64,000 nt of DNA from an uncultured Alphaproteobacteria bacterium (GCA_913053235.1 CAJXFT010000001.1:2785-66784), one strand, 5' to 3'; shown: positions 1 to 32,379, counted from the first letter of the stretch. Notes: generated by a model from the sequence alone, not told the origin. Numbers and translations: made by a program.

Positions 1-445
1 AGCACCACATGTCGCCGTAATATTCAGCCTCGGCCATGCCACCAAAGAGAAATAATTTCGCGCCATCCGAAACCAGTGCGCCGGCATAGCGCCGGGGCGG
101 GCGCGTCGCGCCGCTGTCGATTTCCCGCCACACACCGTCATAACGCCACAAATGGTCGTAAAAAATGACGGCGCCATCGGAAACGCCGCAGCCGCCGAAT
201 AGATAAAGCGCATCATCGAGAACGCACAGGCTGGCATAGCGCGCGGCGCCGGGCCCGCCGTCGGCCAGCAATTGCCAACTTCCATCGTAGCGCCAGAGCT
301 CGGCGCTGACATCATCGGGCGCCACACCGCCGCCGGCGCCGAAGCCGCCGAAGAAATGAAAATCTCCGCGCCACACGGCCGCCCCGGCGGAGCGCCGCGC
401 GCGCGGCGTCGCGTAATCGGTCACGGATTTAGAGATGGCGCTCAA
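1..445 (-). CDS. Kelch-repeat (beta-propeller) protein, partial (5' end in window, runs off coordinate 1); possibly a NanM-like mutarotase
   Basis: Own translation of the minus strand below the aminotransferase stop gives an open frame to base 1. It shows Kelch-like repeats (...LYLFGGCG...HLWRYDGVW...LFLFGGMAE...). Start is ambiguous: TTG at 445 or GTG at 424. The ORF track does not list it because no stop falls in the window. Confidence 0.45.
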   Translation of the reverse strand, partial: MSAISKSVTDYATPRARRSAGAAVWRGDFHFFGGFGAGGGVAPDDVSAELWRYDGSWQLLADGGPGAARYASLCVLDDALYLFGGCGVSDGAVIFYDHLWRYDGVWREIDSGATRPPRRYAGALVSDGAKLFLFGGMAEAEYYGDMWC

Positions 446-1547
446 TCGCCGCGCAGATGCGCCGGCTTGTGGCTTCGTCCATATCGGGGTGCATGGGCAG
501 GCTGAGAACATGGGCGGCCAGCTTTTCGCTTACGGGGAGGGATCCCGGACCGTCGCCAAAGCCGCGATAGGCGGTTTGCAGATGCATCGGCAGCGGATAG
601 TGAATCGCGGTCGGAATGCCATCTTCGCGCAGCGCCGCCGCCAGGCCGTCCCGATCCTCTACCTGGATGGTGTATTGCGCCCAGGCGCTGGTGCTGCCCG
701 CCATGCGCCCCGGCCGCACCGCCGCGCCAGGCAAATGGCGATCGTAATATTCCGCCAGCCGCTCGCGGGCTTCGATTTCGGCGGCGAAGCCCGGCAGTTT
801 GGCCAGCAGTACCGCCGCCTGGAGCGTATCGAGCCGCGAATTCATGCCGACGCGGACGACATCATACTTGGCTTTGCCCTTGCCATGCCCGCGCAGCGAG
901 CGCCATATCTCGGCGCGCCCCGCATCGTCGGTCAGAAGCGCGCCGCCGTCGCCATAGCAGCCGAGCGGCTTGGCCGGAAAGAAGCTGCTCACCGTGGCCG
1001 GCGCCAGGCTGCCGACGGCGCGGCCGCGATAGCGCCCGCCCATGCTCTGCGCCGCGTCGGCGAGCAGGAAGAGATCATGCGCCGCGGCAATTTTCGCCAG
1101 CCCATCGTAATCCGCCGGCAGGCCGAACAGATCGACCGGTATGACCGCGCGCGGCGTCAAACCACCGGCCGCCTTCAGCGCCGCGATCTTGCTCTCGAGA
1201 TCGCCGCAATCGATGAGAAAATCCTCGCCATCGACATCGACGAACACCGGCGTGGCGCCGACCATCAGCACCGTCTCGGCGGTGGCGGTAAAGGTGAAAG
1301 AGGGGACGAACACGGCGTCGCCCGGGCCGATATTTTCGCCCATCAACGCCAGGGTAAGCGCGTCGGTGCCGTTGGCGCAGCTCACCACATGCGCCGCGCC
1401 GACATTGGCCGCCAGCGCCGCCTCGAACTCGCCCACTTCCGGCCCGAGAATGAATCGGCCATGCGCCAGCACGCGCTCTATGCCGGCGTCTATTTCCGGC
1501 TTGAGACGTGAATATTGCGCCTTCAGGTCGATAAACGGAATGCTCAC
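429..1547 (-). CDS. DegT/DnrJ/EryC1/StrS-family PLP aminotransferase (WbpE-like, UDP-3-keto-sugar aminotransferase)
   Basis: ORF 429..1886 is trimmed to the GTG giving (M)SIPFIDLKAQYSRLKPEIDAGIERVLAHGRFILGPEV, a typical WbpE/DegT N-terminus. An AAGGA RBS lies 8 nt upstream. The extra N-terminal 113 aa are Arg-rich overlap junk. Confidence 0.85.
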   Translation of the reverse strand: MSIPFIDLKAQYSRLKPEIDAGIERVLAHGRFILGPEVGEFEAALAANVGAAHVVSCANGTDALTLALMGENIGPGDAVFVPSFTFTATAETVLMVGATPVFVDVDGEDFLIDCGDLESKIAALKAAGGLTPRAVIPVDLFGLPADYDGLAKIAAAHDLFLLADAAQSMGGRYRGRAVGSLAPATVSSFFPAKPLGCYGDGGALLTDDAGRAEIWRSLRGHGKGKAKYDVVRVGMNSRLDTLQAAVLLAKLPGFAAEIEARERLAEYYDRHLPGAAVRPGRMAGSTSAWAQYTIQVEDRDGLAAALREDGIPTAIHYPLPMHLQTAYRGFGDGPGSLPVSEKLAAHVLSLPMHPDMDEATSRRICAAIERHL

Positions 1548-2116: not shown

Positions 2117-2118
2117 GG

Positions 2119-3117
2119 TCAGCTTTCCAGGTCGATGGCGGTGCCGCGCAGGATCGATTGCTGGCACGCCTGCAACACCTTGAGAACGCGGATGCCTTCG
2201 GCGGCACCGGAAGGCGGCTCGGAAATTCCCCCGATGGCATCGAGAAAGGCCTGGCATTCGTTGCGCAGCGGCTCGCTGGCATCGAATTCAAGCGGCTCGG
2301 GCGCCGCCTTGGAGACGATCGGAAGCTCGCCCTCCCAGCCCACCTTGTGGCGGTAGAGGAGCAGTTTTTGCGCCGCATCCCTGGTGTCGTCGAACACGAT
2401 CATCGCCTGTTCGCCGACCACGACGAGTTTCTGCTCCTTAAAGGGATGGAGCCAGGAAACATAGATATGGGCCTGCAGATTGTCATCCATGACGAGGTGC
2501 GACAACGTCGTGTCGGCGACGCCATCGGTCAGATAATTGGCGCCGCTGGCGATCACGCGGCGCGGTATTCCGCCGGCCAATTGCAGGATCATGGAAATGT
2601 CATGCGGGGCAAAAGACCAGAGTGCATTTTCCTCGCGCCTTATTTTGCCCAGGCTCAAACGGTTGGAATAGATGTAGCGCAGTTTGCCCATATGCCCATT
2701 CCGCGCGGTTTCGAGCAGAACCCGGAACGCCGGATGGTAGAGCAGGAGATGCCCGACCATGAGAACCAGGCCTTTTTTTTCGGCCAGCGCCTTTAGTTTT
2801 TCGCCCTCCACGACATCGAGGCAAAGCGGTTTTTCGACAAAAACATGCTTGCCGGCATGGAGCGCGCGCGCCACCAGATCGCCATGGGTGGCGGCCGGCG
2901 TGGCAATCGCCAGCGCCCGGATGGCGCCATCGCCGAGCATCGCCTCGATGTCCCCGTAAACCTCGGCATGGGGATAAAGCGCGGCGTATTTCGCCCGGCT
3001 GTCGGGCGAAATATCGAACAACCCGGCGAGGGAATTCAGGGCATCGAAATTTCGCAACAGGTTCTTGCCCCAATAGCCGGCACCGATCAGCCCGATGCCG
3101 TGGCTGGCGTGATTCAT
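2119..3117 (-). CDS. Gfo/Idh/MocA-family NAD-dependent oxidoreductase (WbpB-like UDP-sugar 3-dehydrogenase)
   Basis: N-terminal Rossmann motif GLIGAGYWGKN and a GFO_IDH_MocA core. ATG at 3117 is preceded by GAGAGGA. It forms a WbpB-WbpD-WbpE-like triad with the two genes downstream. Confidence 0.8.
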   Translation of the reverse strand: MNHASHGIGLIGAGYWGKNLLRNFDALNSLAGLFDISPDSRAKYAALYPHAEVYGDIEAMLGDGAIRALAIATPAATHGDLVARALHAGKHVFVEKPLCLDVVEGEKLKALAEKKGLVLMVGHLLLYHPAFRVLLETARNGHMGKLRYIYSNRLSLGKIRREENALWSFAPHDISMILQLAGGIPRRVIASGANYLTDGVADTTLSHLVMDDNLQAHIYVSWLHPFKEQKLVVVGEQAMIVFDDTRDAAQKLLLYRHKVGWEGELPIVSKAAPEPLEFDASEPLRNECQAFLDAIGGISEPPSGAAEGIRVLKVLQACQQSILRGTAIDLES

Positions 3118-3845
3118 ATCCTCTCTTTCAATTTGCGCGGCGTGTGAACGGCACAATGTGCCGCCAACTCCGTTTCCAATAGTGAAAAGCGCCGGTCCAG
3201 AAATGCGCTCAGCCTGTCCTCCGGCCGGTCACCCTCGCCGACCCACCATATGGCATGGGTCAAGAGCTGCAGCGCCCTGCCCTCGGCGATCGCCGCGTGA
3301 TCCCGGGGGCGGCCGTGGCGCCACGCACCGCGTGAGTCCGAGCAATAGCCGATCTCGTCGAAAAACCGCGATTCATAAGTATTTCCGCGGCCGGCCAGGA
3401 TGCGGTCGTAGGGCCGCAGATTCGGCGAAGGCCGGTGAAAGCTGATCATCGATACGCGCTGTCCGGTGATCGATTCCAGCATTGCGCACTCGCGTTCGAC
3501 CGCCGCCTCCAGTGCCGCGGCGTCGGCGCCGTAAATCGAGGCATCCAGGTGAAGCCCGATTTCATGGCCGGCGCCGGCGATTTCCCGCAATGCGCCGAGG
3601 CCCGCCGGGCTGAACGGATTGTACATTTCGCTGCGCATAAGAACGAAATAGCTGGCGCGCCAGCCCTGCTCCGCTTCCACTGCCGCCAGCCGCGCGGCCG
3701 AGGCAAGGCACTGGTCGATATCATGACGCAGTATCAGATGGCGCCGCGCCGCTCTGGTTTGCGAAAAATCCGTTATCTCATAGCCGCGCGCCAGAATGGC
3801 CGCGATCAGCTCACGATATCCGGCAAGGGTGAATTCAACCGTCAT
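3114..3845 (-). CDS. Putative polysaccharide deacetylase-like protein (WbmS-like)
   Basis: 243-aa ORF with ATGA start-stop overlap to neighbours. Motifs RHDID ... GHEIGLHLD are reminiscent of divergent CE4/polysaccharide deacetylase folds. Assignment is tentative. Confidence 0.4.
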   Translation of the reverse strand: MTVEFTLAGYRELIAAILARGYEITDFSQTRAARRHLILRHDIDQCLASAARLAAVEAEQGWRASYFVLMRSEMYNPFSPAGLGALREIAGAGHEIGLHLDASIYGADAAALEAAVERECAMLESITGQRVSMISFHRPSPNLRPYDRILAGRGNTYESRFFDEIGYCSDSRGAWRHGRPRDHAAIAEGRALQLLTHAIWWVGEGDRPEDRLSAFLDRRFSLLETELAAHCAVHTPRKLKERI

Positions 3846-5691
3846 CGACGACCTCCGAGTAGGAATGGCGCGCCAGCCAACTGGAGATCGTCAACAATTC
3901 GAGCAGGAGTTTGCGGTGGCTGGTGTGCCCGGCGAGATGCTCCTCGACGATCCTTGCCAGGCCCTGGGGGTCGAACAGGCCGCTGTCCAGAAGAGCGGTA
4001 TTTTCCGCCAGACCCCTCAGGCGTTCGACAAAGAATGCGTCGCGGCGCAGCAATTCGTGCAAATTGCTCCAGCTGCCATGGGTCCAGGTGGCGTCCGCCG
4101 GCGGCGCCGGGCGGGCGGACAAACCGACCCGGCGCGCCGCGCCGCGCATAAACATAAGCACGGCCTGCTTGGCGAATCCATTGTTGGCGGAGAGGCCGCT
4201 ATTGGCATCGGGCAGCGCCATCAGATCGGGTGCAAGGCTCTTCATGGCGGCGTGCGCCATGCGCCCGGAGGCGCGCCAGGCGGGTTTCATGGCGTAATAG
4301 AGATCCAATATATCCGGATCGAAGGCGATCGCGCGGTGGGCGATCACCGTATTCATGGCGACGAAATCGTTATAGGCGGTGTGGCGGCCGAGGCAATGCA
4401 AGACAAAGGCATCCCAGGCATTGTAGGGGTCTTCGATATCGGCCGAGGAAAGCGCCAACGCCATGGCGCCGACGCGCCGTTCGTCCCACCCGGCCCGTGC
4501 CCGGGGCGACAGAACGGCCTGCAAGGCGTGCGCGTTCAGGCCGACACGCAAACTGTCGGAAACCGTTTTCGGCTTGCCATCGGGGATGGCGCGAAGCTTC
4601 GGCAAGCGCGTGAGGGAGCCGGCGAGGCGCACCATCGCACAGGGCAGATAATAGCCCCGCAAGGTATAATCCAGACCGTGGCCGGAGAGCAGCACATCAT
4701 GGCTGCGGGCAATATCGGGCAGCGCGCCGAAGAGATTGAACGGCGCCGTAAACAGGCCATCGCTGGCACGGGCGGCGGCGTCGAAATGTGCCGACAAACC
4801 GTGCGGCCGATTCTCGATGTAACGAAACGGCATGTTCGCCATTTGCGCACAGCGCCGTGCGATGCCGACCTCCAGATTGTCGTGGCTGGCAAGGGTCAGG
4901 CACGAGACCTCATGCCCGGCGGCGCGCGCAGCCGCCAGTACCCAGCGCGCATCCAACCCGCCGGACAGCAGCAAACCATGGCGCGCGCTATCGGCGGTGC
5001 GCCGCCTGACGGCGCGCGAAATCCCCTCGGCCAGACGAAGCGCACCTTCCGCCTGGTCGAATTCGGGCGCCCGCCAAACCGGCCGCCGGGTTTCGCGCTC
5101 TTTCCAGCTTTCACCTTCGACGCACCAGATTCGCGCCGCCGGCATGGCGCGAATATCGGCATATTGCGTATGGTCCGAGACCGTCCGCTGATACGACAGC
5201 AGCTCGGTCAGGCCCTGCACGCTGAGGCGCTTCGGCACCCGCTCATCGGCGAGCAAGGCATCGAGCCGCGAGGCCACGGCCAGGTGCCGCCCGTGCCGCC
5301 AAACGAACAAGGTGCGGCTGCCCATTCGGTCCGTGGCAAGAACGATCCGCTTCATCGCCGGATCGACCAGGATTGCCGCAAAGCTGCCGTTCAGCCAGGC
5401 CAGGCGGTCCATCCTGTCGGCATGATAGAGTTCGGCGATTGCCGCCGCGGCATCTTCGAGCGGCCCGCCGTCATCGAATATCTCTCCGTCAACGGCGACC
5501 GTCACCCCCTCGGCGCCATCCTTCAGCGGCTTGTCGCCCGGCAAGCGGGCATGACGGGCGCTGGCGAGTGCGACACCCGGCGCCGGCGCCAGCACTTCCG
5601 TCACCTGACCATGGCGGGCGATGCCGGCAAGCATGGCGGCGGCCGTGGCGCCCGGCTCCGCGGCACCGGCGGCCAAACAAATACCGCTCAT
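3835..5691 (-). CDS. Asparagine synthetase (glutamine-hydrolysing) homolog, WbpS/WbmI-type sugar-uronamide amidotransferase
   Basis: N-terminal MSGICL (class-II amidotransferase Cys2) and the SGGLDARWV PP-loop motif of AsnB. Start ATG at 5691 overlaps the upstream stop as ATGA. Confidence 0.8.
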   Translation of the reverse strand: MSGICLAAGAAEPGATAAAMLAGIARHGQVTEVLAPAPGVALASARHARLPGDKPLKDGAEGVTVAVDGEIFDDGGPLEDAAAAIAELYHADRMDRLAWLNGSFAAILVDPAMKRIVLATDRMGSRTLFVWRHGRHLAVASRLDALLADERVPKRLSVQGLTELLSYQRTVSDHTQYADIRAMPAARIWCVEGESWKERETRRPVWRAPEFDQAEGALRLAEGISRAVRRRTADSARHGLLLSGGLDARWVLAAARAAGHEVSCLTLASHDNLEVGIARRCAQMANMPFRYIENRPHGLSAHFDAAARASDGLFTAPFNLFGALPDIARSHDVLLSGHGLDYTLRGYYLPCAMVRLAGSLTRLPKLRAIPDGKPKTVSDSLRVGLNAHALQAVLSPRARAGWDERRVGAMALALSSADIEDPYNAWDAFVLHCLGRHTAYNDFVAMNTVIAHRAIAFDPDILDLYYAMKPAWRASGRMAHAAMKSLAPDLMALPDANSGLSANNGFAKQAVLMFMRGAARRVGLSARPAPPADATWTHGSWSNLHELLRRDAFFVERLRGLAENTALLDSGLFDPQGLARIVEEHLAGHTSHRKLLLELLTISSWLARHSYSEVVDDG

Positions 5692-7304
5692 CCCGGCGTT
5701 CCCATGAGGAGAGCGCGGCATTCGCCGGGATCGACCCGTTCGGGTTCGCCGCACAGCGCGTTCTCCAGTTCATCCCCGTCCACCAGGGGCCGGTTGCGGG
5801 CATCGAAACGGGCGGCAATGACGTGGCAGCGCCGCGCCACCATATCCTTGACGCGGGCGTTGAACATCGGATTTCCCATATCGATGAAGGTGATCGGGCG
5901 GTCGGTGCAAAGCGCTTCGGCGAAGGTCGTCGACTGGCCGTAATCGAACAGGAAGCGATCCGCCCAGGCGATATGAGATTCAAAGGGCTCCGCACTGGTC
6001 GGCGCGATGTCGGCCAGGGGATGGCGTTGGCCGCGCAACAGGCCCTCGGGATGCGGCTTGCAGATGAGATCAAGCGGCATTTTTTGCACCGCCTCGACGA
6101 GGCGAAACTGCCAATCGAGATAGATGACATCGGGCAGGGTGGGCGGCAGGAACTGCCGTTGGCCACGCAGAATAGTCGGCGCGTAGATCAGTTGAGGCCG
6201 GGCGCCGGCGCGCGCCGGGCGCTCGAGCGTGAGGCCGGCGAGAGCGGACGCACCGACATGGCCGGCGATTTCGGCGCCGGCGCAATTCGCCATGGCGCCA
6301 TTTTCGCTGGCGCTTTTCAAACATTGCGCGCCGGTCGGCGTTTCCACCACATAGCGGTCGCTCACGGCAAGCTCGGAAAAGGCGATGCTGTCCGTGACCC
6401 CGGCCATGCCGGCAAACCAGCCATGCGCAAATCGCGTCACATGGCCGCCCCGGCGGCGCACCTCGATACCTGCGGCGCGCGCCGGATAGTAGCCGCCCGA
6501 GCCCGACCACAGTTTGCGCGGCAATGTCTTGAGCCGGCGCATGCCTTGCAAATCGGAAACCGCCTTCGACAGCGCCGGCGCTATCAAGGGGTTGATCAAC
6601 CGGTCGAGACGCTGGCGATATTCGGGCGCCAATCCTTCGATGCCGGCGAGGCGCGCGGACAGGCGCGCGGCAATTTCTTCGAGCGCGGCCGGCGCCACTT
6701 CCGGCACCGATGCGGTATGCGCCCGCGCGGCCCGAAGCAGGGCCTCGGCATGGAAGAATCTTACCGCCGCGCCGCCGCGCCGCGCCGCATCGCGCAGCAT
6801 GTCATTGTGGCTGACGGCGGTAATCTCCGGTGCCAGCATGGCAACCGGCAAACGCCAGAGCGGCGTCCAACTCGCTGTCCGTGCAAGCCGGCGCAGCGCT
6901 TCGCCGGACGGCGCGCTCATCGGTTTGAACAGGGCCGGATCGCTTAAACCGGATGACCGTTCAATATTCCCGCCGCCGCTCAACGCGGCCAGTTCGGGCG
7001 GGCCACCCAACAACCGCACCCCGCCCGCGTCCGCCGCCTGAACGACGAAGGCGTTCTCCACCAGGCTGCGCGACAGCGCCAGAACGGAGCCGAGGCCAAG
7101 CAATGCCGCCGGCCGCAGAATTTCACCGTCCAGTTGGTCGATAAGGCCGAGCGCCGCGCCGGTGGCGGCGCGGGTGACGCGAAACGCTTCCGCGTAAGGC
7201 AGCGGCCAAGCCACCGATTCACGCCAGTCCGGGGTATCAAGCGCCGCCGGATAGTCGAACGGCGTCGCCGGCGGCGTCATCGCCGCAGGCAGAGAATGCG
7301 CCAT
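5688..7304 (-). CDS. Hypothetical protein, 538 aa, no recognisable domain (glycan-island resident)
   Basis: Long ORF with GC3-rich codon usage, tightly packed in the operon. No motif recognised by eye. Confidence 0.55.
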   Translation of the reverse strand: MAHSLPAAMTPPATPFDYPAALDTPDWRESVAWPLPYAEAFRVTRAATGAALGLIDQLDGEILRPAALLGLGSVLALSRSLVENAFVVQAADAGGVRLLGGPPELAALSGGGNIERSSGLSDPALFKPMSAPSGEALRRLARTASWTPLWRLPVAMLAPEITAVSHNDMLRDAARRGGAAVRFFHAEALLRAARAHTASVPEVAPAALEEIAARLSARLAGIEGLAPEYRQRLDRLINPLIAPALSKAVSDLQGMRRLKTLPRKLWSGSGGYYPARAAGIEVRRRGGHVTRFAHGWFAGMAGVTDSIAFSELAVSDRYVVETPTGAQCLKSASENGAMANCAGAEIAGHVGASALAGLTLERPARAGARPQLIYAPTILRGQRQFLPPTLPDVIYLDWQFRLVEAVQKMPLDLICKPHPEGLLRGQRHPLADIAPTSAEPFESHIAWADRFLFDYGQSTTFAEALCTDRPITFIDMGNPMFNARVKDMVARRCHVIAARFDARNRPLVDGDELENALCGEPERVDPGECRALLMGTPG

Positions 7305-12033: not shown

Positions 12034-12098
12034 CCTGATTTATCCATTCGTTTTGGTAACGCTTTGAGCCTCAATTTCGCCAGGCTGGCGCACGCATC

Positions 12099-13694: not shown

Positions 13695-13731
13695 AGCGCA
13701 CCGGCAGCGGCATCGGTCTGCCCGTGCCGCC

Positions 13732-23636: not shown

Positions 23637-23640
23637 TGCC

Positions 23641-25085: not shown

Positions 25086-25095
25086 CGGCCACAGC

Positions 25096-25923
25096 TCATC
25101 GGCTCGTGCGCCGGCGCCATGCGACCGCCGCCTCGACCGCTTCGGTTGCCGGCAAAAGCACCGTTCGCGCCGCCCCGACAGTGCCGAGGCGGGCGATCCC
25201 CTTGTCGATCAACATCGCCATGCCGTCGTCGAACCAGTCGATCGGGTAATTCACATCGCTATATTCAGCCCATTCCCGATGCCCCTCGACAGTGACGGGA
25301 GATCGCCTGGTCACGCGCTCGGCGCCACCGACCAGATGCTGCGTCAGATGAAAGAGGGCCGTCGTGTCGTAAGGCGCGCCGAGCAACAATACCTTGCCGC
25401 CGAGCGCCATCAATTGACCGAGCGGCGAATCCGGTCCGAAACGGTTGTCGAGCGGGTGCGCGCCGACGAGCGCGCCGGCGTCCGGTCCGAGCGCGGCAAA
25501 GGAGGATTGCGGATGCGGGCTGCGAACGACGCCCGGCTGATGGCGGAAAAGTTCCGGCACGACGCCCATGCCGCGGGTCGGAGTCCGCGACGCGTCATAA
25601 GCCGGCATTTCGCCGCGGATCGTTTCCACCCATTCGCTCGGCACCGCCGGGTGCGCCCATTCCGCGGGGTCGGAGAGATCGCCCGAATAGGTCGGCATCA
25701 TCAGCGTTCCAGCTTCGCCGACACTGGCGCTCAGGCCCTCAATGATGGTTCGCGCACCGCCGATCACGAAGCCAAGGCTCTTCATCGAAAGATGCACACA
25801 CAAGACATCACCCGCGCGCACACCGATGCCATGCAGATCGGCGGTGAACGAATGGGGCGTGACGAGCGTCGCGGAATGGGACGCCATCTCGCGCCCGCTC
25901 GATGAAACCGGCTTCACCATCAC
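25096..25923 (-). CDS. AAC(3)-family N-acetyltransferase (aminoglycoside-3-N-acetyltransferase fold)
   Basis: HSFTADLHGIGVRAGDVLCVHLSMKSLGFVIGG...TLMMPTYS is colinear with AAC(3) enzymes. Start may be at M13 (25887). Confidence 0.65.
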   Translation of the reverse strand: MMVKPVSSSGREMASHSATLVTPHSFTADLHGIGVRAGDVLCVHLSMKSLGFVIGGARTIIEGLSASVGEAGTLMMPTYSGDLSDPAEWAHPAVPSEWVETIRGEMPAYDASRTPTRGMGVVPELFRHQPGVVRSPHPQSSFAALGPDAGALVGAHPLDNRFGPDSPLGQLMALGGKVLLLGAPYDTTALFHLTQHLVGGAERVTRRSPVTVEGHREWAEYSDVNYPIDWFDDGMAMLIDKGIARLGTVGAARTVLLPATEAVEAAVAWRRRTSR

Positions 25924-27422
25924 CCCGACCGCGCCAGCACCGAAGGTTTGCTTTCGAAGCTCCGATAGAGCGCCTGGGTCGCCTCGTCGACGGCCTCGGG
26001 ATCGAAACTTTTGAGATCGATATAATCATAGCCGCGCAGATCGAAACTCATGCCGATCATGGCCTCGAGAAAGCGCGCACCATCGCGAAGCGCCTTTTCA
26101 GTATCGAATTCAGCGGTCAGCGCCGCGGCAAGATAATCCTTGAGGCGGGTCTCGTCGCTGACGGTCCAGACATGCGGCAACAGGGCGAAGAGATTGTGCC
26201 GCCCGAAGCTGATGACCGGCTTGCCGAGGGCGGCCGCTTCGAATCCGGCGGTTCCGGTTATCGTGACCACCGCCTTCGCACGGCGCACGATATCAAGGCC
26301 GGGCTCGAGTGTTTCGAGAAGGATGACATTCTTGAGGTCGCGGATCTGGTCATAGAAATCGCTCGGGCGGCGGCCGAGGGAATAGGGCGTGTCTTTCACG
26401 ACAAGCTTGTATCCGGCGGGCAGATCCCGCGATATCGCGGCAATGGCGGCATGTTGATAAAAATATTCGGGCGACAGCGTCTGAAGCGCCATTTCCGGCT
26501 CGGTATGCAGCGGGAAGAACACGAAAGGCTTGTCGCCGAGGCTTTCCAAATTGGGCATGTGGGAACCGATATAGCGGGCCAGGTCGCGCTGCAGGCGAAG
26601 CTCATAAACCAGCCGTTCGCGCAACAGATAACCGCGCGCCTTCTCATAGCGCCGCAGGCGCCAATAGATATGGCGGGCGACGATGAGAAGCAGCCGCTTG
26701 GGCAAATTTCGCCAGCGTTTTTTTGCCAGAAAAGCATCGCGGATCGTGCGGTGCGAAAGATAGGGCCTGTCCATCGCCGCCGCGACGTCGAGGTCGCCCG
26801 AAGTACTGGCAAAGGCGGCGTCGAGTTCATCGGTTTCGAAATATTCGTCTTGCGCCCAATAGTGATAATTTTGAACGCGCGCGCCGGCGATCTGGCGAAA
26901 CGGGATGCCCATGCTTCTGGCGATCACCGCCAGCACCTTGCCGCCCTGGATAATCACGCTCGGCTGCTTGAGGTAAAACTGATTTCGCCAATATGCAAAA
27001 AGCCCGTTGTAAGCCTGCAGCATCTGAACATAGTCGGTGCCCTCGGAGTAGCGCGAACGGGGATGATGGTAGCCGGCCAAGGCATAGCCGCGGCCGAGAT
27101 GGCGGTCGGAAATGTTGATATGGTTATATGTACAGCCCAGCCAATTTTCATTCTTTCGCGCCTCGGCAACGACTTTCGCCTCGTCGAGATCCTGCGCGCC
27201 CACGGCATCATATAGGCGGAACGCGATTTCGATCGTCTCGAACAGGCCGGGCTCGGAATTCTGGCGATAAAAACTTTCCTCCTGAGGGGTTGTGACATAG
27301 AGGTGCAGCTTGCTGTTCTTCTGCGCATGCAGGCGGCGCGCCAGGGCGAGCAAGACATAGCGATATTGTGAATGCGCCACCAGAAAGACGCGGCGAAACG
27401 GTTTGCCCGCGCCTTGATTCAT
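25920..27422 (-). CDS. Capsule-polysaccharide-biosynthesis-family protein (KpsS/KpsC-like, Capsule_synth); possibly a nonulosonic-acid glycosyltransferase
   Basis: ORF 25920..27842 is trimmed to ATG 27422 (MNQGAGKPFRRVFLV...). FFPLHTEPEMAL ... LVVKDTPYSL resembles the Capsule_synth family. Assignment is tentative. Confidence 0.45.
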   Translation of the reverse strand: MNQGAGKPFRRVFLVAHSQYRYVLLALARRLHAQKNSKLHLYVTTPQEESFYRQNSEPGLFETIEIAFRLYDAVGAQDLDEAKVVAEARKNENWLGCTYNHINISDRHLGRGYALAGYHHPRSRYSEGTDYVQMLQAYNGLFAYWRNQFYLKQPSVIIQGGKVLAVIARSMGIPFRQIAGARVQNYHYWAQDEYFETDELDAAFASTSGDLDVAAAMDRPYLSHRTIRDAFLAKKRWRNLPKRLLLIVARHIYWRLRRYEKARGYLLRERLVYELRLQRDLARYIGSHMPNLESLGDKPFVFFPLHTEPEMALQTLSPEYFYQHAAIAAISRDLPAGYKLVVKDTPYSLGRRPSDFYDQIRDLKNVILLETLEPGLDIVRRAKAVVTITGTAGFEAAALGKPVISFGRHNLFALLPHVWTVSDETRLKDYLAAALTAEFDTEKALRDGARFLEAMIGMSFDLRGYDYIDLKSFDPEAVDEATQALYRSFESKPSVLARSG

Positions 27423-27439
27423 GGCGCTCTCATGGCGCT

Positions 27440-28618
27440 TCAGGCCGCCGCATTTTCGGCCCAGGGAGATGAAAATTCGGCGGCCTGTTCCGAATATCTC
27501 TTGATCAGGAGTTTTTCGCGCGCCGGCAGGTTGGCGACCAGCGCCGCGATGCGGGGTGCCGCATGGCCATCGCCGTAGAGCGAGGCGCGGGGGGCGCGCG
27601 GCGCCCGCGGAGCGCCTCCCGCCTCGGCCAGCATTGTTCGAATGGTTTCTGGATCGGCGGCAGAATGGCGCACATTGGCCGCCCTCTCGCGCCCCGCCTG
27701 GCGCCCGCCGACATCGATGACCGGCAGGCCGAAAAGGCCCGCTTCGACGATGCCGCTGGATGAATTGCCGAGCATCAGCGCGGCATGGCGCATGGCGTTG
27801 GCATAGAGGCGAACACCGAGAGTATCGCGGAACAGCGCCCACGGACGCGGCGCCGCGAAGGCTTCGATGCGGGCGCGGATTTCGGCGCCGCCCGGATCCG
27901 CGTTGGGCGCGGTCAGCACGGTTGGCCGCGCCGCATCGTCGAGAGCGGCGAGGACCGCTTCAAGCGGGCGCAGTGGCTCCCCGGCATTGGTCTCGGGATG
28001 CACGGTGACGAGGTAGAACCCATCGCCCGAGGAAAGGCCGAGCTCCGCGGCCAATTCGCCGGCGCCCATTTCGGGCGCCGCCAGCAGCCCGTCCAGCCCC
28101 GGCGCGCCGGTGACGTGAATGCGCCACGGCTCCTCTCCCATCCGGCTGAGGCGCGTGGCGGCTTGCACGGTGGCGGCACAGTGCAGATGGGCGAGCTTGC
28201 TAATGGCGTGGCGGATACGCTCATCGACCGCGCCCTCCGAGCTTTCGCCGCCATGCAGATGTATGAGAGGCAGATTAAAGGCCAGCGTCGCCATCGCGGC
28301 AGGCAGCATGTCGAGCCGGTCACCGATCACCAACACGGCGTCGGGTGCGATCTTGGCGGTCAGGCGCACCATCGCCGCGGCAATCTCCGGCGCCGCCGCC
28401 GCCGCCTCGGCTGCCGCGCGCCCGGCGAGATCGGCGCCGCCCCGATGCACCTCGGCCCCGTCCGGCAGGGCGGTGGCGGCCAAGGCCGTGTCGCTGACAT
28501 GCGCGCCGGTCAGGAATATGTGTAATTCCACGCCGGGCTCGGCGGCGAGCAGGCGCCACACCGGCGCGAGAATTCCAACATCGGCGCGGCTGCTGGAAAC
28601 CGAGAGAACAATGCTCAA
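27440..28618 (-). CDS. legG: Hydrolysing UDP/GDP-N-acetylhexosamine 2-epimerase (NeuC/LegG family)
   Basis: NeuC-like: ...VLVIGDRLDMLPAAMATLAFNLPLIHLHGGE...VTVHPET... Confidence 0.75.
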   Translation of the reverse strand: MSIVLSVSSSRADVGILAPVWRLLAAEPGVELHIFLTGAHVSDTALAATALPDGAEVHRGGADLAGRAAAEAAAAAPEIAAAMVRLTAKIAPDAVLVIGDRLDMLPAAMATLAFNLPLIHLHGGESSEGAVDERIRHAISKLAHLHCAATVQAATRLSRMGEEPWRIHVTGAPGLDGLLAAPEMGAGELAAELGLSSGDGFYLVTVHPETNAGEPLRPLEAVLAALDDAARPTVLTAPNADPGGAEIRARIEAFAAPRPWALFRDTLGVRLYANAMRHAALMLGNSSSGIVEAGLFGLPVIDVGGRQAGRERAANVRHSAADPETIRTMLAEAGGAPRAPRAPRASLYGDGHAAPRIAALVANLPAREKLLIKRYSEQAAEFSSPWAENAAA

Positions 28619-29634
28619 CGAGAGCGCTCCACGGCCATGATATCCACCTCGCGGATCGGCTCATCCGCCGCGCGCGCGATCTTGAGGCGATGGCCGATCG
28701 GCGATTGCGCCGCGGATAGTCCTGTCGCCGGCCGTTTCAGGCAAACATCGCCGGCGGCCAACAGCGCGCCCGCCGCAAGGTCGGTCGCCGCGTGCCAGCT
28801 CTTGCGCGCCACTTCGGCAACTTCCAGCTCGGCCGGGCTCGGCGCCTTCACCCCATCGCCAAGAGCCACCTCCGTGGCGCGCAAGCGCGCGCTCATGGCG
28901 GCAAATTCGTCGGGGTTGAGCGATGCCGCATGGTCGGGGCCGGCAAGAGCGTGATCCAGAGTGAGATGTTTCTCGATCACCGAGGCGCCAAGCGCCACGG
29001 CGGCGACCGCCACATGATCGCCAAGGCTATGGTCGGAATAGCCCACCGGGAGATTGAAATGTTGACGCAGGGTCTGCATGGCGCGCAGGTTCACGCTTTC
29101 CATCGGCGCCGGATAGAGCGAGGTACAGTGCAACAGGGTGATGTCGCCGGCGCCGCCCTGGCGCAACGTCTCGACCGCAAGCCGCACTTCTTCAAGCGTC
29201 GCCATGCCGGTCGACAACAGGACCGGCAGGCCGCTCGCGGCGACATGCGCCAGGGCCGGCAGATTGTCGAGCTCACCGGACGCCACCTTGATGCGCCGCA
29301 TGCCCATATCCGTGAGCGCCGCGATCATCGTCGAATCGAACGCGGTGCAGAGAAATTCCATATCGCGGGCGCGGCAATGTTTGGCGATCCCGGCCAATTG
29401 ATCGAGCGAAAGCTCGAGCCGCTCGAGCATCGCGCGCTGCTCGTCATGGCCGGTTTTCTCTCGTTGATAGGCGGCGGTGGGCGCGCCGCCGGCAACCAGG
29501 TCACGGCCGCGGAAGGCCTGAAACTTGACGATATCGGCGCCCGCCCGCGCCGCCGCGTCGACCAGTGCCAGCGCGCGGTCGAACTCGCCATCGTGATTGA
29601 CGCCCGCCTCGGCGATAATCAGCACGGCGCTCAT
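28615..29634 (-). CDS. legI: N-acetylneuraminate/legionaminate synthase (NeuB/LegI)
   Basis: LIIAEAGVNHDGEFDRALALVDAAARAGADIVKFQ NeuB N-terminus and a C-terminal SAF/antifreeze-like domain. Distinct paralog of the PseI-like gene at 7315. Confidence 0.8.
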   Translation of the reverse strand: MSAVLIIAEAGVNHDGEFDRALALVDAAARAGADIVKFQAFRGRDLVAGGAPTAAYQREKTGHDEQRAMLERLELSLDQLAGIAKHCRARDMEFLCTAFDSTMIAALTDMGMRRIKVASGELDNLPALAHVAASGLPVLLSTGMATLEEVRLAVETLRQGGAGDITLLHCTSLYPAPMESVNLRAMQTLRQHFNLPVGYSDHSLGDHVAVAAVALGASVIEKHLTLDHALAGPDHAASLNPDEFAAMSARLRATEVALGDGVKAPSPAELEVAEVARKSWHAATDLAAGALLAAGDVCLKRPATGLSAAQSPIGHRLKIARAADEPIREVDIMAVERSR

Positions 29635-30218
29635 GGCGATCCGTCCTTCATCGAATAGAGATGATTCGCCGGCACAAGATCGCCGTCACCGATCTCGCAT
29701 CGCGGCAGCACGACCGCCGCGGCACCGATCATGGCGCAGCGGCCAACCGTAACGCCGCCGAGAAGAACAGCGCGCGGCGCCAGATGGCTGCCGGCACCGA
29801 GATGTGAATCATGCTCGACAATGGCGCCGGTATTGACGATCGCGGCGGGTCCGATCACGGCGCCCGGCTGAACGACGGCACCGGCAAGAATGATGGCGCC
29901 TTCTTCAATTTGCGCGGAAGGGCTGACATGAGCCGCCGGGTGGCGGATCGGCGGCGCCGCGCGGCCCGATGCGAGATAGCGCTCAAACAGCAAAAAGCGG
30001 CGCTCCAGCATTTTTCGCGTGACGCCCCCCATCCCCAGGACGAAATTCGCCGGATCGACCGATTTCAGAGCCGTCTCGTCATCGCCAATTCGCCGCGCGG
30101 CCAACCAGGACGCCGCCACGCCATCGACATAGGCCGTCAGCGCATGATCGCCCAACGCCTCGACGATGGCCTTGGCATGCCCGCCGGCGCCGACCAGCAG
30201 AATTGTATTGGCGCTCAT
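29631..30218 (-). CDS. Hexapeptide sugar N/O-acetyltransferase (NeuD/PglD/LegH family)
   Basis: MSANTILLVGAGGHAK plus a C-terminal left-handed beta-helix. ATG at 30218 overlaps the stop of LegC by 1 nt. Confidence 0.8.
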   Translation of the reverse strand: MSANTILLVGAGGHAKAIVEALGDHALTAYVDGVAASWLAARRIGDDETALKSVDPANFVLGMGGVTRKMLERRFLLFERYLASGRAAPPIRHPAAHVSPSAQIEEGAIILAGAVVQPGAVIGPAAIVNTGAIVEHDSHLGAGSHLAPRAVLLGGVTVGRCAMIGAAAVVLPRCEIGDGDLVPANHLYSMKDGSP

Positions 30219-31342
30219 TATTGCCCTGCCGATTGGCGCCACATCCCGAGCGCGGCGATAACCCTGGCCTGGTCCTCGGGCGACAGCGAGCTTGATGACG
30301 GCAACACCACAACGCGGCCCGAGATGCCGCGCGAGATGCCGGCCAACTGCCGCGGGCAGTCGGCGTAAGGCGCCTGGGCCGAAAGCGACAGCCAAAAGAT
30401 CGAAGAATCAATCGCCCGCTCGGCCAAATAGGCGACCAGGCCGTCGGCGCAATCGGGCGACGAACACAACACCGCATAAAGCCAATGGCTGCTCAGCGCC
30501 CAATCGCGGCGCGGCATCGGCGTGAGGTCGGCGCGCCCGGCCAATGCCCGATCATAGGTCGCGGCCAGGGCGCGCTTGGCGGCGAGCATGTCATCGAGCC
30601 GTTCGAGTTGGGCCAGGCCAACGGCGGCGTTGAGATTTGTCATGCGATAATTGAAGGCCACTTCATCATGGCGGTATGCCGGCGCCTCGCGGGACTGGGC
30701 GCTCAGTCGGCGCATGCGCTCCGCCGCCCGGCAGTTATTGGTGACCACCATGCCGCCGCCGCCGGCGGTTACCGTCTTGTTGCCGTTAAAGCTGAACACG
30801 GCGAAATCGCCGAAGCCGCCGACCTGGCGTCCCTGATATTGAGCGCCGAGCGCCCCCGCCGCATCCTCGATCAGCGCCACGCCGGCATCCCGGCAGATGG
30901 CGCCGAGCGGCGCCAGCTCGGCCGGATGGCCGAGCGCATGGACGGCGATGACGGCGCGAATGCGGTTGTCCGGCTGCCCGATTATCCGCCGCGCCGCCGC
31001 CACATCGAGGGTCCAGCTGTCATCCGCGATGTCGGCGAAAAACGGCTCGGCGCCGGCATGGAAGACGGCGTTGGCGGTGGCGGCGAATGTCCAATCCGGC
31101 ACCAATACCCGATCGCCCGGGCCGACGCCCGCGGCGAGCAAGGCGAGGTGCAGGCCCGCCGTGCCGTTGACCGTGGCGACGCTATGGGCGGTGCCGGTAA
31201 TCTCAGCCACGCGGCGCTCCATGTCAGCGACAAACGGCCCCGCCGAGGAGACCCAGTTATCGGCGACACAACGCGCCAGATAGGCGGCCTCATTGCCGCG
31301 CAAATCAGGTATGGCGACAGGAATATTGGCCAGCGCGTTCAA
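30218..31342 (-). CDS. legC: DegT-family aminotransferase (LegC/PglE-like)
   Basis: Start is TTG at 31342 in a TTGA overlap with the upstream stop, with GGAG 10 nt upstream. Protein (M)NALANIPVAIPDLRGNEAAYLARCV... is typical of LegC/PglE. Confidence 0.75.
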   Translation of the reverse strand: MNALANIPVAIPDLRGNEAAYLARCVADNWVSSAGPFVADMERRVAEITGTAHSVATVNGTAGLHLALLAAGVGPGDRVLVPDWTFAATANAVFHAGAEPFFADIADDSWTLDVAAARRIIGQPDNRIRAVIAVHALGHPAELAPLGAICRDAGVALIEDAAGALGAQYQGRQVGGFGDFAVFSFNGNKTVTAGGGGMVVTNNCRAAERMRRLSAQSREAPAYRHDEVAFNYRMTNLNAAVGLAQLERLDDMLAAKRALAATYDRALAGRADLTPMPRRDWALSSHWLYAVLCSSPDCADGLVAYLAERAIDSSIFWLSLSAQAPYADCPRQLAGISRGISGRVVVLPSSSSLSPEDQARVIAALGMWRQSAGQ

Positions 31343-32379
31343 GCGCCGTTCTCCGCATTGGCCTGGGCCAAATCGTCGGGCTGGCCGACATCGCGCCAAT
31401 ATTCGTGCAGGGGAAAGATGCCGACCCGAAGGCCTTCGGCGCGCCCGGCCTCGAGAAGCTCCGGCATGTCCACGGAGCGGCCGCGCGGCGTCAATGCGAC
31501 AAACTCCGGCGACAGCATGTAAATGCCGGCGGCGACAAAATAGCTATTGGTCGGCTTTTCCTCGATGCCGGAAAACAATCCGTCTTCGCCGAGCCGCAAC
31601 ACACCAAATGGTATATTCACGTTGTAGCGTGACACCGCCACGGTGCCGTCATGGTTATGCTCGGCATGAAATTTGCGCAGATGGGCGAAATCCACCTGCG
31701 ACACCACATCGCCATTGACCACAATCGTGGTTTCATCGACGCCACCAGGCATCAAGGTCAGTGCACCGACCGTGCCGAGAGGCTGCGGTTCGCGGATGAA
31801 ACTGATCTCGGCGCGATTGCCGCGCGCGGCGACAAACGCTTCCACCTGTTCGGCGCGATAGTGCACGGCTATGGTGATCGCCTCGACGCCACCATCTTCA
31901 AGCTGGCCGAGCAGGCGACCCAGAATGGGCTGCTCGCCGACCGGCAAAAGCGGCTTGGGAACATGCCGGGTCTGGGCGCCCAGGCGCTTGCCGAAGCCGC
32001 CGGCCATGACCAGGGCACGGCTCGCCAACGGCGCGCGGGCCTGAATGAGCACCTCTTGAATGCGCCCCTCGGCATCGACAATCGGCAAAAATTCAGCCCC
32101 GCTCAGTCTGTCGCGGTTGGCCGCGGTATCGCCCGTCCGACCGACGATGGGTGCTGCGTTCATACATTTTTCTACACTGTCTTCGAGTGCGATCTCGCGC
32201 AGCATCGCGCGGCGCACATCGCCATCGGTCACCGTACCGATGACCCGGCGATCGGCGTCGATGACGATCTGAAAGACGTGCGAGCGGTCATTGTTGATGC
32301 GGCTCAACGCCTCGCGAATCGTTGTCTCTCTCGTACAGACGAGATAATCCAAGGCGCTGATGCGTATCATGGCCGACAC
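31339..32379 (-). CDS. CBS-domain pair fused to a sugar-1-phosphate nucleotidyltransferase (PtmE-like)
   Basis: N-terminal tandem CBS domains, then LVMAGGFGKRLG (G-x-G-x-R nucleotidyltransferase) and a left-handed helix tail. First gene of operon A. GTG at 32379 or ATG at 32370. Confidence 0.75.
   Translation of the reverse strand: MSAMIRISALDYLVCTRETTIREALSRINNDRSHVFQIVIDADRRVIGTVTDGDVRRAMLREIALEDSVEKCMNAAPIVGRTGDTAANRDRLSGAEFLPIVDAEGRIQEVLIQARAPLASRALVMAGGFGKRLGAQTRHVPKPLLPVGEQPILGRLLGQLEDGGVEAITIAVHYRAEQVEAFVAARGNRAEISFIREPQPLGTVGALTLMPGGVDETTIVVNGDVVSQVDFAHLRKFHAEHNHDGTVAVSRYNVNIPFGVLRLGEDGLFSGIEEKPTNSYFVAAGIYMLSPEFVALTPRGRSVDMPELLEAGRAEGLRVGIFPLHEYWRDVGQPDDLAQANAENGA

Follow-up and report, generated by a model that had tools for sequence, protein, structure and literature searches.

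The stretch of DNA analyzed here, called the window throughout, comprises 64,000 nucleotides from an uncultured Alphaproteobacteria bacterium (GCA_913053235.1 CAJXFT010000001.1:2785-66784) and includes, in the sugar genes of its left half, the central part of a cell-surface sugar locus of about 55 kb, whose host is an uncultured mesopelagic marine alphaproteobacterium. We interpret it, with moderate confidence, as a surface-glycan locus in which a legionaminic acid (Leg)-type branch, a pseudaminic acid (Pse)-type branch without PseB and a diacetamido-hexose branch would stand together, with probable sulfation. The identities of the genes, their order, their coupling and the conservation of the modules in related loci were observed directly. 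An initial annotation, made from the sequence of the window by itself, had placed three acetamido-sugar pathways (Pse-type, Leg-type and 2,3-diacetamido-uronamide) between positions 429 and 32379. Gene model and family scans located all the genes that it listed at the places given, and genes of the Pse, Leg and 2,3-diacetamido types were present in that range; however, the LegB-like gene lies outside it, PseB is missing and the uronamide was not supported.

The gene model was constructed from a list of open reading frames (ORFs), from NCBIfam and Pfam scans and by comparison with the genes called on near-identical public contigs carrying exactly the same proteins, against which the starts were also checked. 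These contigs came from Tara Oceans, from the JGI marine metagenomes and from three metagenome-assembled genomes (MAGs) of NCBI labelled "Alphaproteobacteria bacterium" (GCA_030744265.1, GCA_030746645.1, and GCA_030745155.1), and the public counterparts bear automatic names only, such as "pseudaminic acid synthase", "N-acetylneuraminate synthase family protein", "pyruvate kinase", or "hypothetical protein". Re-translation gave no internal stop in any of the 36 gene models. Since the window is GC-rich (59-68%; the DNA around the spurious ORFs is described as 65% GC), long spurious ORFs occur on both strands. Three of them on the minus strand (12030-14099, 32367-33623, and 35052-36143; 363-689 residues), without family matches, were rejected as antisense shadows of plus-strand genes encoding a sulfatase-family, an esterase-like and a LegB-like protein, respectively; the first of these genes had been overlooked initially because it was hidden by its shadow. 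The sugar genes of the left half form two minus-strand arrays, array A running from 32370 to 13732 and array B from 12033 to 429 and on beyond the left end of the window. At 16 of the 26 junctions the genes overlap, in ten cases by the four nucleotides ATGA, TTGA, or GTGA, and the largest gap is 42 nucleotides. The two head-to-tail operons with ATGA/TTGA-coupled starts that had been proposed are therefore real as arrays and overlaps, but the plus-strand sulfatase-family gene (12099-13694) intervenes between them. A scan for promoters and terminators across this boundary (11800-14000) gave no signal above shuffles.

The Pse-type branch possesses a PseC aminotransferase (16675-17877, minus strand; TIGR03588, 496 bits with a cutoff of 423.5). 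No ORF of the window, in turn, passed the model of PseB (TIGR03589, cutoff 408): the C-terminal domain of a WbpM-like protein reached 169 bits, the LegB-like protein 47, and RmlB 27. The WbpM/PglF-like protein is the only Polysacc_synt_2 enzyme in the window, and its gene is located 33 kb away in another operon. With PseB missing, the pathway is not the canonical one. In the place of PseB there are two minus-strand genes, encoding a 147-residue RmlC/FdtA-like cupin (19367-19810; Pfam dTDP_sugar_isom 41.5 bits, FdtA 24.5 bits) and a 474-residue protein with a CBS domain and an extended short-chain dehydrogenase/reductase (SDR) domain of GalE/C4-dehydrogenase-like type (17900-19324; Pfam CBS and Epimerase), referred to as CBS-SDR. 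The catalytic residues of the latter were read by alignment with the three real dehydratases of the window. The active site, SSCSVYG...YGKIK, keeps YxxxK and is without the D/E of RmlB (STDE), LegB (STSE), and WbpM (SSDK), and since these acid/base residues of a dehydratase are missing, the protein resembles an epimerase or a C4-oxidoreductase and not a 4,6-dehydratase. Its top match in the PDB was 6vo6 (115 bits), presumably the C4-dehydrogenase Cj1427; the Pal protein of Bacillus thuringiensis (6bwl) matched with 42 bits.

Taking PseC as the reference, we scanned 185,579 species genomes and kept 80 loci for the comparison of arrangements. In the first arrangement, present in many phyla, a PseB-type gene stands directly upstream of PseC, and in the second, found in many loci of Firmicutes and corresponding to the Pen/Pal system, this position is occupied by a second SDR, which accompanies a separate Polysacc_synt_2 gene. 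In the third it is the CBS-SDR that lies directly upstream, in 7 loci: five marine alphaproteobacterial MAGs (L011-L015; related loci are numbered with the prefix L), an unclassified bacterium (L019), and an Omnitrophota MAG (L021). The cupin gene precedes the CBS-SDR-PseC pair in six of them (L011, L012, L013, L015, L019, and L021), the seventh, L014, being a contig of 2.7 kb and too short. Neither Polysacc_synt_2 nor rmlA/rmlB genes were found in any of the seven in the available sequence, which extends up to 10 kb on each side. The conserved position directly upstream of PseC argues that the cupin and the CBS-SDR take over the role of PseB.

The other genes of the Pse block are also on the minus strand. 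PseC overlaps by 1 nucleotide with the gene of an SpsF/KdsB-like cytidylyltransferase (15890-16675; Pfam CTP_transf_3 70 bits), a candidate CMP-Pse synthetase that gave no match to the PseF model and whose homologs (32-41% identity) are found in most PseC loci of other phyla. Array B starts with a TylF-family sugar O-methyltransferase (11341-12033; Pfam TylF 46.8 bits), which is kept in L011, L013, L015, and L019, followed by a PseG hydrolase fused to GNAT domains (9804-11351; TIGR03590, 224 bits with a cutoff of 153.6), a class I S-adenosylmethionine methyltransferase (9037-9807; UbiE-like matches, Methyltransf families on public contigs), and a PIG-L/LmbE-family de-N-acetylase (8369-9040; Pfam PIG-L 83.6 bits, BshB1 70 bits). 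Of the PseC and the PseG-PseH fusion annotated initially, PseC and PseG pass their cutoffs and a GNAT is indeed fused, but this candidate for the PseH role has PseH as its top NCBIfam match with 22.8 bits for a cutoff of 93. The deacetylase, which had been counted with a Wbp-like module, sits inside the Pse block together with the two methyltransferases.

Two NeuB-family synthases, PseI-like and LegI-like, had been described as paralogs, and the curated scores, the residues of the C2 site and the gene context agree with this. The synthase at 7315-8367 (minus strand) is a PseI pseudaminic acid synthase (TIGR03586, 477 bits with a cutoff of 340), and that at 28615-29634 (minus strand) is a nonulosonic acid synthase of the neuraminic acid (Neu)/Leg type and a LegI candidate (TIGR03569 NeuB_NnaB, 392 bits with a cutoff of 399.65; PseI model, 238 bits). 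They share 34% identity, about as much as either shares with the NeuB of N. meningitidis (NmNeuB; 32-33%). By these identities, the model scores and the Phe or Gly at the C2 site, they are deep paralogs of different clades, and the outcome that would have refuted the initial annotation, one clade for both, did not occur. It has been described that the C2-specificity site carries Phe in Pse and Gly in Neu/Leg synthases, and that position 184 is Ser for Pse, Tyr for Leg, and Asn/Tyr for Neu, the Tyr of Leg being reported for Vibrionaceae enzymes (PMC7371886). In the 7315 synthase the C2 site is Phe and position 184 is Ser, the same residues as in the solved PseI 8h2c, to which it matched with 274 bits and 44% identity (164 bits to NeuB), and the 28615 synthase has Gly at the C2 site. 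Position 184 was dropped as a discriminator of Leg and Pse, since it is Ser in both synthases and so uninformative for the 28615 enzyme. A loop within the stretch of NmNeuB positions 70-95 has been tied to C4-C6 specificity (PMC7371886), and in about this stretch the motif of the 7315 synthase is nearly identical to that of Campylobacter jejuni PseI (GGLW...LYELY...TP.WH). The closest solved relatives of the 28615 synthase were SpsE of B. subtilis and NeuB, and homologs about 60% identical to it frequently bear the automatic name legionaminate synthase; this comparison comprised three solved structures and machine-named homologs. We call the enzyme LegI-type because it is surrounded by PtmE-like, LegC-family, NeuD/LegH, NeuC/LegG, and LegB-family genes, and it is this context, with the machine names of the homologs, that sets it apart from the Neu5Ac synthases.

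The initial annotation had missed, besides the two methyltransferases, the sulfate-activation genes that lie within the Pse block. Array A closes with a gene (13732-15897, minus strand) for a fusion of 721 residues composed of a pyruvate kinase (PK) barrel, a PUA_2 domain and an ATP-sulfurylase (Pfam, 226, 124, and 213 bits, respectively), in which the sulfurylase motifs have a variant form (HTRNVIHRVH and VGRDHTG). This PK/ATP-sulfurylase family has more than 120 clusters with 58-88% identity, all of about 720 residues and annotated merely as "pyruvate kinase" or "ATP sulfurylase" (loci L091-L137), and its hosts include Alphaproteobacteria, Omnitrophica, Verrucomicrobia, Bacteroidetes, and the cultured Methyloversatilis discipulorum. 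In Methyloversatilis the genes after the fusion encode two Sulfotransfer_3 proteins and one of the TauE family; the fusion of an Omnitrophica genome belongs to a nonulosonic-acid-type cluster, with two Sulfotransfer_3 genes on one side of it and an adenosine 5'-phosphosulfate (APS) kinase on the other; and in L093 the fusion overlaps by 4 nucleotides a sulfatase-family gene (12160-13890). By metagenome scan and tblastn, the fusion, or a stand-alone PK-like protein with a Sulfotransfer_3-like gene before it and APS kinase after it, was found repeatedly in marine contigs beside WbuX/HisH/HisF, PtmE-like, WbpM-like, and NeuB-family genes (L137, L140-L158). It is from these gene contexts elsewhere that we infer sulfation, and the glycan is probably sulfated. 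In the open-access full-text literature we found no report of the PK/ATP-sulfurylase fusion or of sulfated bacterial nonulosonic acids, a negative that does not prove their absence. A substitution of APS kinase by the PK-like domain was also considered and rejected, because fusion and APS kinase co-occur, the latter directly after the former in L092, L099, L100, and L137. As a separate observation, marine contigs (L139-L173) carry stand-alone PK-barrel proteins of about 312 residues, with 35-47% identity to the N-terminal domain of the fusion; APS kinase is the next gene in most of these contigs and a Sulfotransfer_3-like gene precedes in many, and WbuX/HisH/HisF, WbpM-like, PtmE-like, and NeuB-family genes adjoin.

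The sulfatase-family protein, a member of the alkaline-phosphatase superfamily (12099-13694, plus strand; Pfam Sulfatase 135 bits and SGSH_C), has no signal peptide and no membrane segment and is cytoplasmic. The sequence GCVTSFAFP replaces the C-x-P-x-R formylglycine motif, and the L093 homolog that is coupled to the fusion (28% identity) has lost the Cys and retains the Thr alone. These residues suggest a Thr-nucleophile enzyme rather than a classical sulfatase, and its activity may be that of a transferase and not of a hydrolase. The whole block, formed by the ABC exporter, cupin, CBS-SDR, PseC, cytidylyltransferase, PK/ATP-sulfurylase, the sulfatase-family gene on the opposite strand, TylF, the PseG fusion, PseI, and a 538-residue protein, is kept in the alphaproteobacterial MAGs L011, L013, L015, L094, and L095.

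The genes of the Leg-type branch are situated in the upstream part of array A (minus strand). The first one encodes a PtmE-like protein with CBS and sugar-1-phosphate nucleotidyltransferase domains (31339-32370; NTP-transferase matches at residues 121-342, KpsF/CBS-type N-terminus), also called CBS and NTP_transferase on public contigs. A LegC-family aminotransferase follows (30218-31342; TIGR04181, top match with 357 bits, cutoff 420), its start in a TTGA overlap with the preceding gene, and then a NeuD/LegH-type hexapeptide N-acetyltransferase (29631-30218; TIGR03570 of the NeuD/PglB family, top match with 128 bits, cutoff 161), the 28615 synthase, and a NeuC/LegG-type hydrolysing 2-epimerase (27440-28618; TIGR03568, 293 bits with a cutoff of 235.9, a model that does not distinguish NeuC from LegG). 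The family scores of 27440-32370 thus bear out the NeuC-, NeuD-, LegC-, and PtmE-like genes of the initial annotation. Outside the range that it covered, on the plus strand, there is a LegB-family 4,6-dehydratase (35100-36134; TIGR04180, 388 bits with a cutoff of 475, next best 149) with an STSE motif resembling that of GDP-mannose dehydratase; the Leg-type set would probably be complete only with this gene. Considering that most Leg-type proteins are top matches and yet remain under the equivalog cutoffs, the assignment to Leg is probable and not proven.

Further along array A there are an AAC(3)-family N-acetyltransferase (25096-25920; Pfam Antibiotic_NAT 246 bits, NCBIfam AAC_3 199 bits) and the acetamidino module, annotated before as WbuX/HisH/HisF and recovered as such by family scores. 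It consists of a HisF/WbuZ-like cyclase subunit (24309-25085; TIGR03572 WbuZ 264 and TIGR00735 275 bits, both just below cutoffs), a HisH-like glutaminase subunit (23641-24312; TIGR01855, 189 bits with a cutoff of 105), and a WbuX/PseA-family N-acetyl sugar amidotransferase (22377-23687; TIGR03573, 357 bits with a cutoff of 203), contiguous and overlapping. The trio could serve either nonulosonic acid, or a 3-N position as WbpG does; by adjacency, the Leg branch is favoured as its user. The WbuX gene shares a GTGA overlap with a CMP-nonulosonate synthetase and LegF candidate (21688-22380; Pfam CTP_transf_3; PseF model 109 bits with a cutoff of 206), and with this enzyme, the other CTP_transf_3 protein at 15890-16675 and the PtmE-like protein, the two to three cytidylyltransferases expected were accounted for. 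An MsbA/PglK-type ABC exporter (19836-21674; HepA-family 344 bits, MsbA 336 bits) is the flippase candidate. Compared with the window, the Pse block of L011 and L012 is 85-90% identical (PseC, 89%), and upstream of the exporter the identities are 43% for a 500-residue protein, 28% for WbuX, and 35% for the cytidylyltransferase; with the Pse block conserved and the upstream block divergent, the Leg part appears to be exchangeable among close relatives.

The third module, at the left end of array B (minus strand), contains a WbpE-type 3-aminotransferase of the DegT family (429-1547; PDB 4qgr 411 bits, WbpE 3nu7/3nyu 343 bits), a WlbB/WbpD-type 3-N-acetyltransferase (1544-2116; PDB 3mqg, 214 bits, E 1.6e-62), and a Gfo/Idh/MocA oxidoreductase, which is a candidate sugar 3-dehydrogenase of the GnnA/archaeal type (2119-3117; NF040723 UDP-GlcNAc 3-dehydrogenase 110 bits, PDB 3c1a 112 and 7bvj 91 bits). 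The WbpB/WlbA structures gave no match to this oxidoreductase at E ≤ 1e-8; 7bvj is presumably GnnA UDP-GlcNAc 3-dehydrogenase. Next come a 243-residue protein without family match (3114-3845; a faint polysaccharide-deacetylase match, E 0.056) and an AsnB-like glutamine amidotransferase (3835-5691; Pfam GATase_7 and Asn_synthase, TIGR01536 78 bits). The former accompanies the AsnB-like gene in L095, L097, and L102, and the two accompany the 3-dehydrogenase/WlbB/WbpE trio, a nonulosonic acid synthase and the fusion in L095, L097, L102, L121, and L124. The pair would belong to the same glycan programme as the trio. It was also seen that the second-best NCBIfam match of the AsnB-like protein is the XrtA/PEP-CTERM amidotransferase and that the faint match of the 243-residue protein is the XrtA-system polysaccharide deacetylase; the pair may echo an uncharacterised pair of PEP-CTERM exopolysaccharide loci.

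In the Wbp route, WbpA acts before and WbpI after the three middle steps (PMC10622841). No WbpA-type 6-dehydrogenase (UDPG_MGDP_dh) was found among the window ORFs of at least 150 residues or in the 3 kb of the left flank, and a scan for the catalytic Cys motif of the 6-dehydrogenases was negative in the window and in eleven related loci, which counts as supporting evidence only. The WbpI 2-epimerase was likewise not found in the window or in the 3 kb left flank, where the only Epimerase_2 protein is the NeuC/LegG-type enzyme of the Leg block. With neither WbpA nor WbpI, a uronic acid, and hence its amide, is unsupported, and the product that is supported is a UDP-2,3-diacetamido-2,3-dideoxyhexose; the AsnB-like gene by itself does not show a uronic acid. 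The WbpB/D/E, AsnB-like and deacetylase module of the initial annotation therefore keeps its WbpE-like, WlbB-like and AsnB-like members, but its oxidoreductase is not WbpB-like in sequence and its deacetylase belongs to the Pse block, and the amidated diacetamido-uronic acid deduced from it loses its support with WbpA, WbpI, and the WbpB/WlbA-type dehydrogenase.

Two proteins are candidates for the transfer of the nonulosonic acids. The 500-residue protein (25920-27422, minus strand), weakly KpsC/KpsS-like (Pfam Capsule_synth 28.8 bits with a cutoff of 20), may be the CMP-Leg transferase; when a profile of four sequences was compared with the PDB, KpsC alone matched (E 0.15-0.23). A single-sequence AlphaFold2 model of it had a mean confidence (pLDDT) of 33 and was not used. 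The 538-residue protein (5688-7304, minus strand) belongs to no sequence family, has a GT-B glycosyltransferase fold and is a candidate Pse transferase. Past the left end of the window, array B continues (window 1-445, minus strand; L007 12673-15861) with a Kelch/NanM-like beta-propeller, a GT4 glycosyltransferase and an enolase-superfamily (MR_MLE) protein.

The locus stretches past the window's left end on one side and to about 54.2 kb on the other, where purH (54112) delimits it, and the genes of its right part indicate the destination of the glycan. This part contains a Wzy_C protein (48008-49513, minus strand), a carbamoyltransferase (49512-51284), a WecA/WbpL-like GT4 (51155-52309), and the WbpM/PglF-like membrane UDP-GlcNAc 4,6-dehydratase (52176-54233, plus strand; Pfam Polysacc_synt_2 364 bits), as well as an RfaH-like gene (42027-42524, minus strand; RfaH model 132 bits with a cutoff of 144.5). 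The WecA/WbpL-like, WbpM-like, Wzy_C, and RfaH genes point to a lipid-linked surface glycan. No flagellin or maf genes were found in the window, and by its gene content the locus is of the O-antigen or capsule type and not a flagellin glycosylation island. The ops element GGCGGTAGnnTG was matched at 11 of its 12 positions at 38914-38925 (minus strand) and 49460-49471 (plus strand), both in the leaders of long operons of glycan genes; ops-like matches of this quality numbered 8 in the window for 4.1 expected by chance, a count that alone is not significant. The genes rmlA and rmlB are present in the window and rmlC and rmlD are absent; the former are 17 kb from the cupin and the CBS-SDR and in a different transcription unit. 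At 39093-42015 (plus strand) a fusion of phosphoenolpyruvate mutase and nucleotidyltransferase (TIGR02320, 387 bits) is followed by a phosphonopyruvate decarboxylase (412 bits), a pair that suggests that a phosphonate, probably aminoethylphosphonate, decorates the same glycan or a lipid. Between 43548 and 54233 there are also a methyltransferase-GT2 fusion, two further methyltransferases and a PMT-like membrane protein. Outside the sugar locus, at 56092-62643, an NAD-specific glutamate dehydrogenase of 1636 residues (minus strand) adjoins an ELFV-type one of 478 residues (plus strand), two different types of this enzyme.

From these genes we infer the substrates, the sequence in which the modifications occur and the finished glycan as follows. 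The start of array A would form a GDP-type legionaminic branch through the PtmE-like, LegC, LegH, LegI, and LegG proteins, completed by the LegB-like enzyme at 35.1 kb, and its product would be a CMP-Leg derivative, probably 5- or 7-acetimidoyl. The Pse-type branch would start in array A, from the cupin to the PK/ATP-sulfurylase fusion, and continue in array B, from TylF to the GT-B-fold protein. The 4-keto intermediate used by PseC would be made in a non-canonical way, the cupin epimerising C5 and the CBS-SDR serving as redox partner at C4, and the 4,6-dehydration would be provided by the WbpM-like enzyme or by an unlinked gene. The Pse-type acid would be modified further by de-N-acetylation and re-acylation and by methylation, and sulfation would probably affect this acid or a neighbouring sugar. 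The 3-dehydrogenase, WlbB-like and WbpE-like trio would make UDP-2,3-diacetamido-2,3-dideoxyhexose.

Several observations weigh against this interpretation. All the evidence for the role given to the cupin and the CBS-SDR is synteny and missing motifs, and PseB could be encoded elsewhere in the genome, the search for it having covered the window. The GNAT domain is barely PseH-like. LegB, LegC, LegH, LegI, and the 21688 cytidylyltransferase score under the NCBIfam equivalog cutoffs, and position 184 of the 28615 synthase is Ser and not the Tyr of the Vibrionaceae Leg enzymes. Neither a sulfotransferase domain nor an APS kinase was found in the window, both candidate nonulosonic acid transferases are weakly supported (E about 0.2 to KpsC for the 500-residue protein), and the host is uncultured.

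Among the other explanations, the complete one of the initial annotation, with canonical Pse and Leg pathways and a WbpA/B/E/D-type uronic acid amidated by the AsnB-like protein, all in one glycan, draws on the closeness of the WbpE-like (343 bits) and WlbB-like (214 bits) proteins to enzymes whose substrate is the uronic acid form, and on the AsnB-like gene, which stands two genes upstream of the trio and goes with it in the five loci mentioned. AsnB-like enzymes such as WbpS and WbtH reportedly amidate hexuronic acids in some O-antigen clusters. Against it, neither the WbpA nor the WbpI family is represented in the 64 kb window or in the left flank of 3 kb, no 6-dehydrogenase motif turned up in the motif scan, the 3-dehydrogenase is of the GnnA/archaeal type and not WbpB/WlbA, and PseB is missing; we regard it as unlikely. 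The loss of either nonulosonic acid pathway, with one set working and the other a mosaic remnant of recombination at an O-antigen locus, would fit the kept Pse block and divergent upstream block of L011 and L012, as is typical of mosaic glycan loci. Yet the 36 gene models are all intact and most of them translationally coupled, and both sets are identical on contigs from at least 6 independent samples, which leaves this explanation as a very remote one.

The cupin and the CBS-SDR admit two further explanations. They may be RmlC/RmlD-like partners of RmlA and RmlB for the synthesis of a dTDP-6-deoxy-L-hexose, with PseB elsewhere in the genome: rmlA and rmlB lack their rmlC and rmlD, the cupin is a weak RmlC-family match and the SDR a weak RmlD_sub_bind match. 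But the distance and the separate transcription unit speak against such a partnership, as does the lack of rmlA or rmlB in the available sequence of all seven CBS-SDR-PseC loci, in which the pair invariably takes the very position that PseB or Pal has in other phyla, so that we find it rather improbable. It may also be, by analogy with Cj1427/Cj1430, that UDP-GlcNAc is oxidised at C4 by the CBS-SDR, with no 6-deoxygenation, and then epimerised at C5, possibly also at C3, by the cupin, so that PseC, the GNAT, PseG and PseI would yield a 5,7-diacetamido acid that keeps the 9-hydroxyl, or another stereoisomer, to be O-methylated or O-sulfated; we know of no report of a 5,7-diacetamido acid with its 9-hydroxyl kept. 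The CBS-SDR without dehydratase residues, with 6vo6 as its top solved relative, is in line with this route, as are its adjacency to PseC in seven loci (with the cupin in six) without a Polysacc_synt_2 gene in the available sequence of up to 10 kb on each side, and the presence of sulfate-activation and O-methyltransferase genes within the same conserved block. However, the equivalog cutoffs that PseC, PseG, and PseI pass derive from enzymes of 6-deoxy substrates, the 7315 synthase is very near to the C. jejuni PseI in the 70-95 stretch, and a WbpM-like 4,6-dehydratase is encoded in the same locus; a sugar of this kind seems unlikely. A bolder version would join a new route, with PseB replaced by a cupin epimerase and a C4-dehydrogenase regulated by CBS, to a new sugar, a product of 9-hydroxy or new configuration, and add O-sulfation by a Thr-nucleophile sulfatase-fold transferase with activated sulfate supplied by the fusion. 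What makes the sulfatase-fold protein the proposed sulfuryl transferase is that the window has neither a classical sulfotransferase nor an APS kinase, and taken as a whole this version is quite improbable. If true, it would give the first example of a sulfated nonulosonic acid in bacteria and of a sulfotransferase with a sulfatase fold, since to our knowledge, and in literature searches, neither has been reported. The interpretation that we prefer remains that of three branches, the Pse-type one entered without PseB, in a probably sulfated surface glycan.

Nonulosonic acids shape the recognition of bacterial surfaces by phages, grazers and immune systems, and their diversity in the open ocean is largely unexplored; here an abundant uncultured mesopelagic alphaproteobacterium carries two pathways for them. 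The locus touches two gaps in the pathway models. One is the entry to the pseudaminic-type route without PseB, through the cupin and the CBS-SDR, which is conserved across phyla, and the other is the recurrent tie of nonulosonic acid clusters to sulfate activation by a widespread PK/ATP-sulfurylase fusion. Pse and Leg in one organism are already known from C. jejuni, so what the initial annotation claimed is, taken alone, an ordinary, if rich, O-antigen-type locus. As far as the sequence can tell, its distinctive features would be the conserved cupin and CBS-SDR cassette that stands for PseB and the sulfate activation within the Pse block.

By comparison with known systems, the closest parallel for the coexistence of both acids is Campylobacter. 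C. jejuni encodes NeuB1-3, with separate PseI and LegI paralogs (PMC7371886), and acetamidino modification by PseA/PtmG-type enzymes has been described in Campylobacter (PMC5378307). The present locus is like C. jejuni and C. coli in its PseI and separate LegI candidate, in a Leg route that would be GDP-linked with a CBS-containing PtmE-like protein and in the acetamidino enzymes of the WbuX/PseA family. Unlike Campylobacter, whose flagellin glycosylation locus comprises pse and ptm/leg genes and in which PseB is canonical and Maf proteins link the sugars to flagellin, it has no PseB, flagellin or maf genes and carries WecA/WbpL-like, WbpM-like, Wzy_C, ABC exporter, RfaH, and sulfate-activation genes. 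The wbp cluster of Pseudomonas aeruginosa O5 is laid out with WbpA/B/E/D/I, WbpG with HisH/HisF, and WbpL/WbpM. Our locus shares with this type of cluster the WbpE-like and WbpD/WlbB-like proteins, an amidotransferase with HisH/HisF and the WbpL- and WbpM-like proteins at the locus end; it differs in that WbpA and WbpI are absent, the 3-dehydrogenase is not WbpB-like and the amidino trio is in the Leg block, 20 kb from the 3-dehydrogenase/WlbB/WbpE trio. In Legionella pneumophila serogroup 1 the O-antigen is a homopolymer of 5-acetimidoyl-7-acetamido legionaminic acid. Its lipopolysaccharide locus likewise joins a Leg-type synthase set and an acetamidino function, although with a single nonulosonic acid and without a Pse branch, a diacetamido-hexose trio or sulfation genes.

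For the replacement of PseB there are two partial precedents. Bacillus thuringiensis reaches CMP-Pse by the Pen/Pal route, reportedly worked out by Li et al. in 2015 (Pal structure 6bwl). There, as would be the case in our locus, more than one enzyme replaces PseB, and in both an SDR without dehydratase residues stands directly upstream of the aminotransferase; but in B. thuringiensis a Polysacc_synt_2 dehydratase (Pen) is close by and there is no cupin, whereas here a cupin and a CBS-fused SDR are found with no Polysacc_synt_2 gene nearby, and Pal is matched with 42 bits. In the modification of the capsule heptose of C. jejuni, a C4-dehydrogenase feeds a cupin C3/C5-epimerase (Cj1427 and Cj1430; PMC10680097). 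This pairing of a C4-oxidising SDR with a small cupin epimerase is like the one proposed for our locus, with the difference that the Campylobacter pair acts on GDP-heptose and its pathway ends with a C4-reductase, whereas here PseC comes third and the SDR carries an N-terminal CBS domain.

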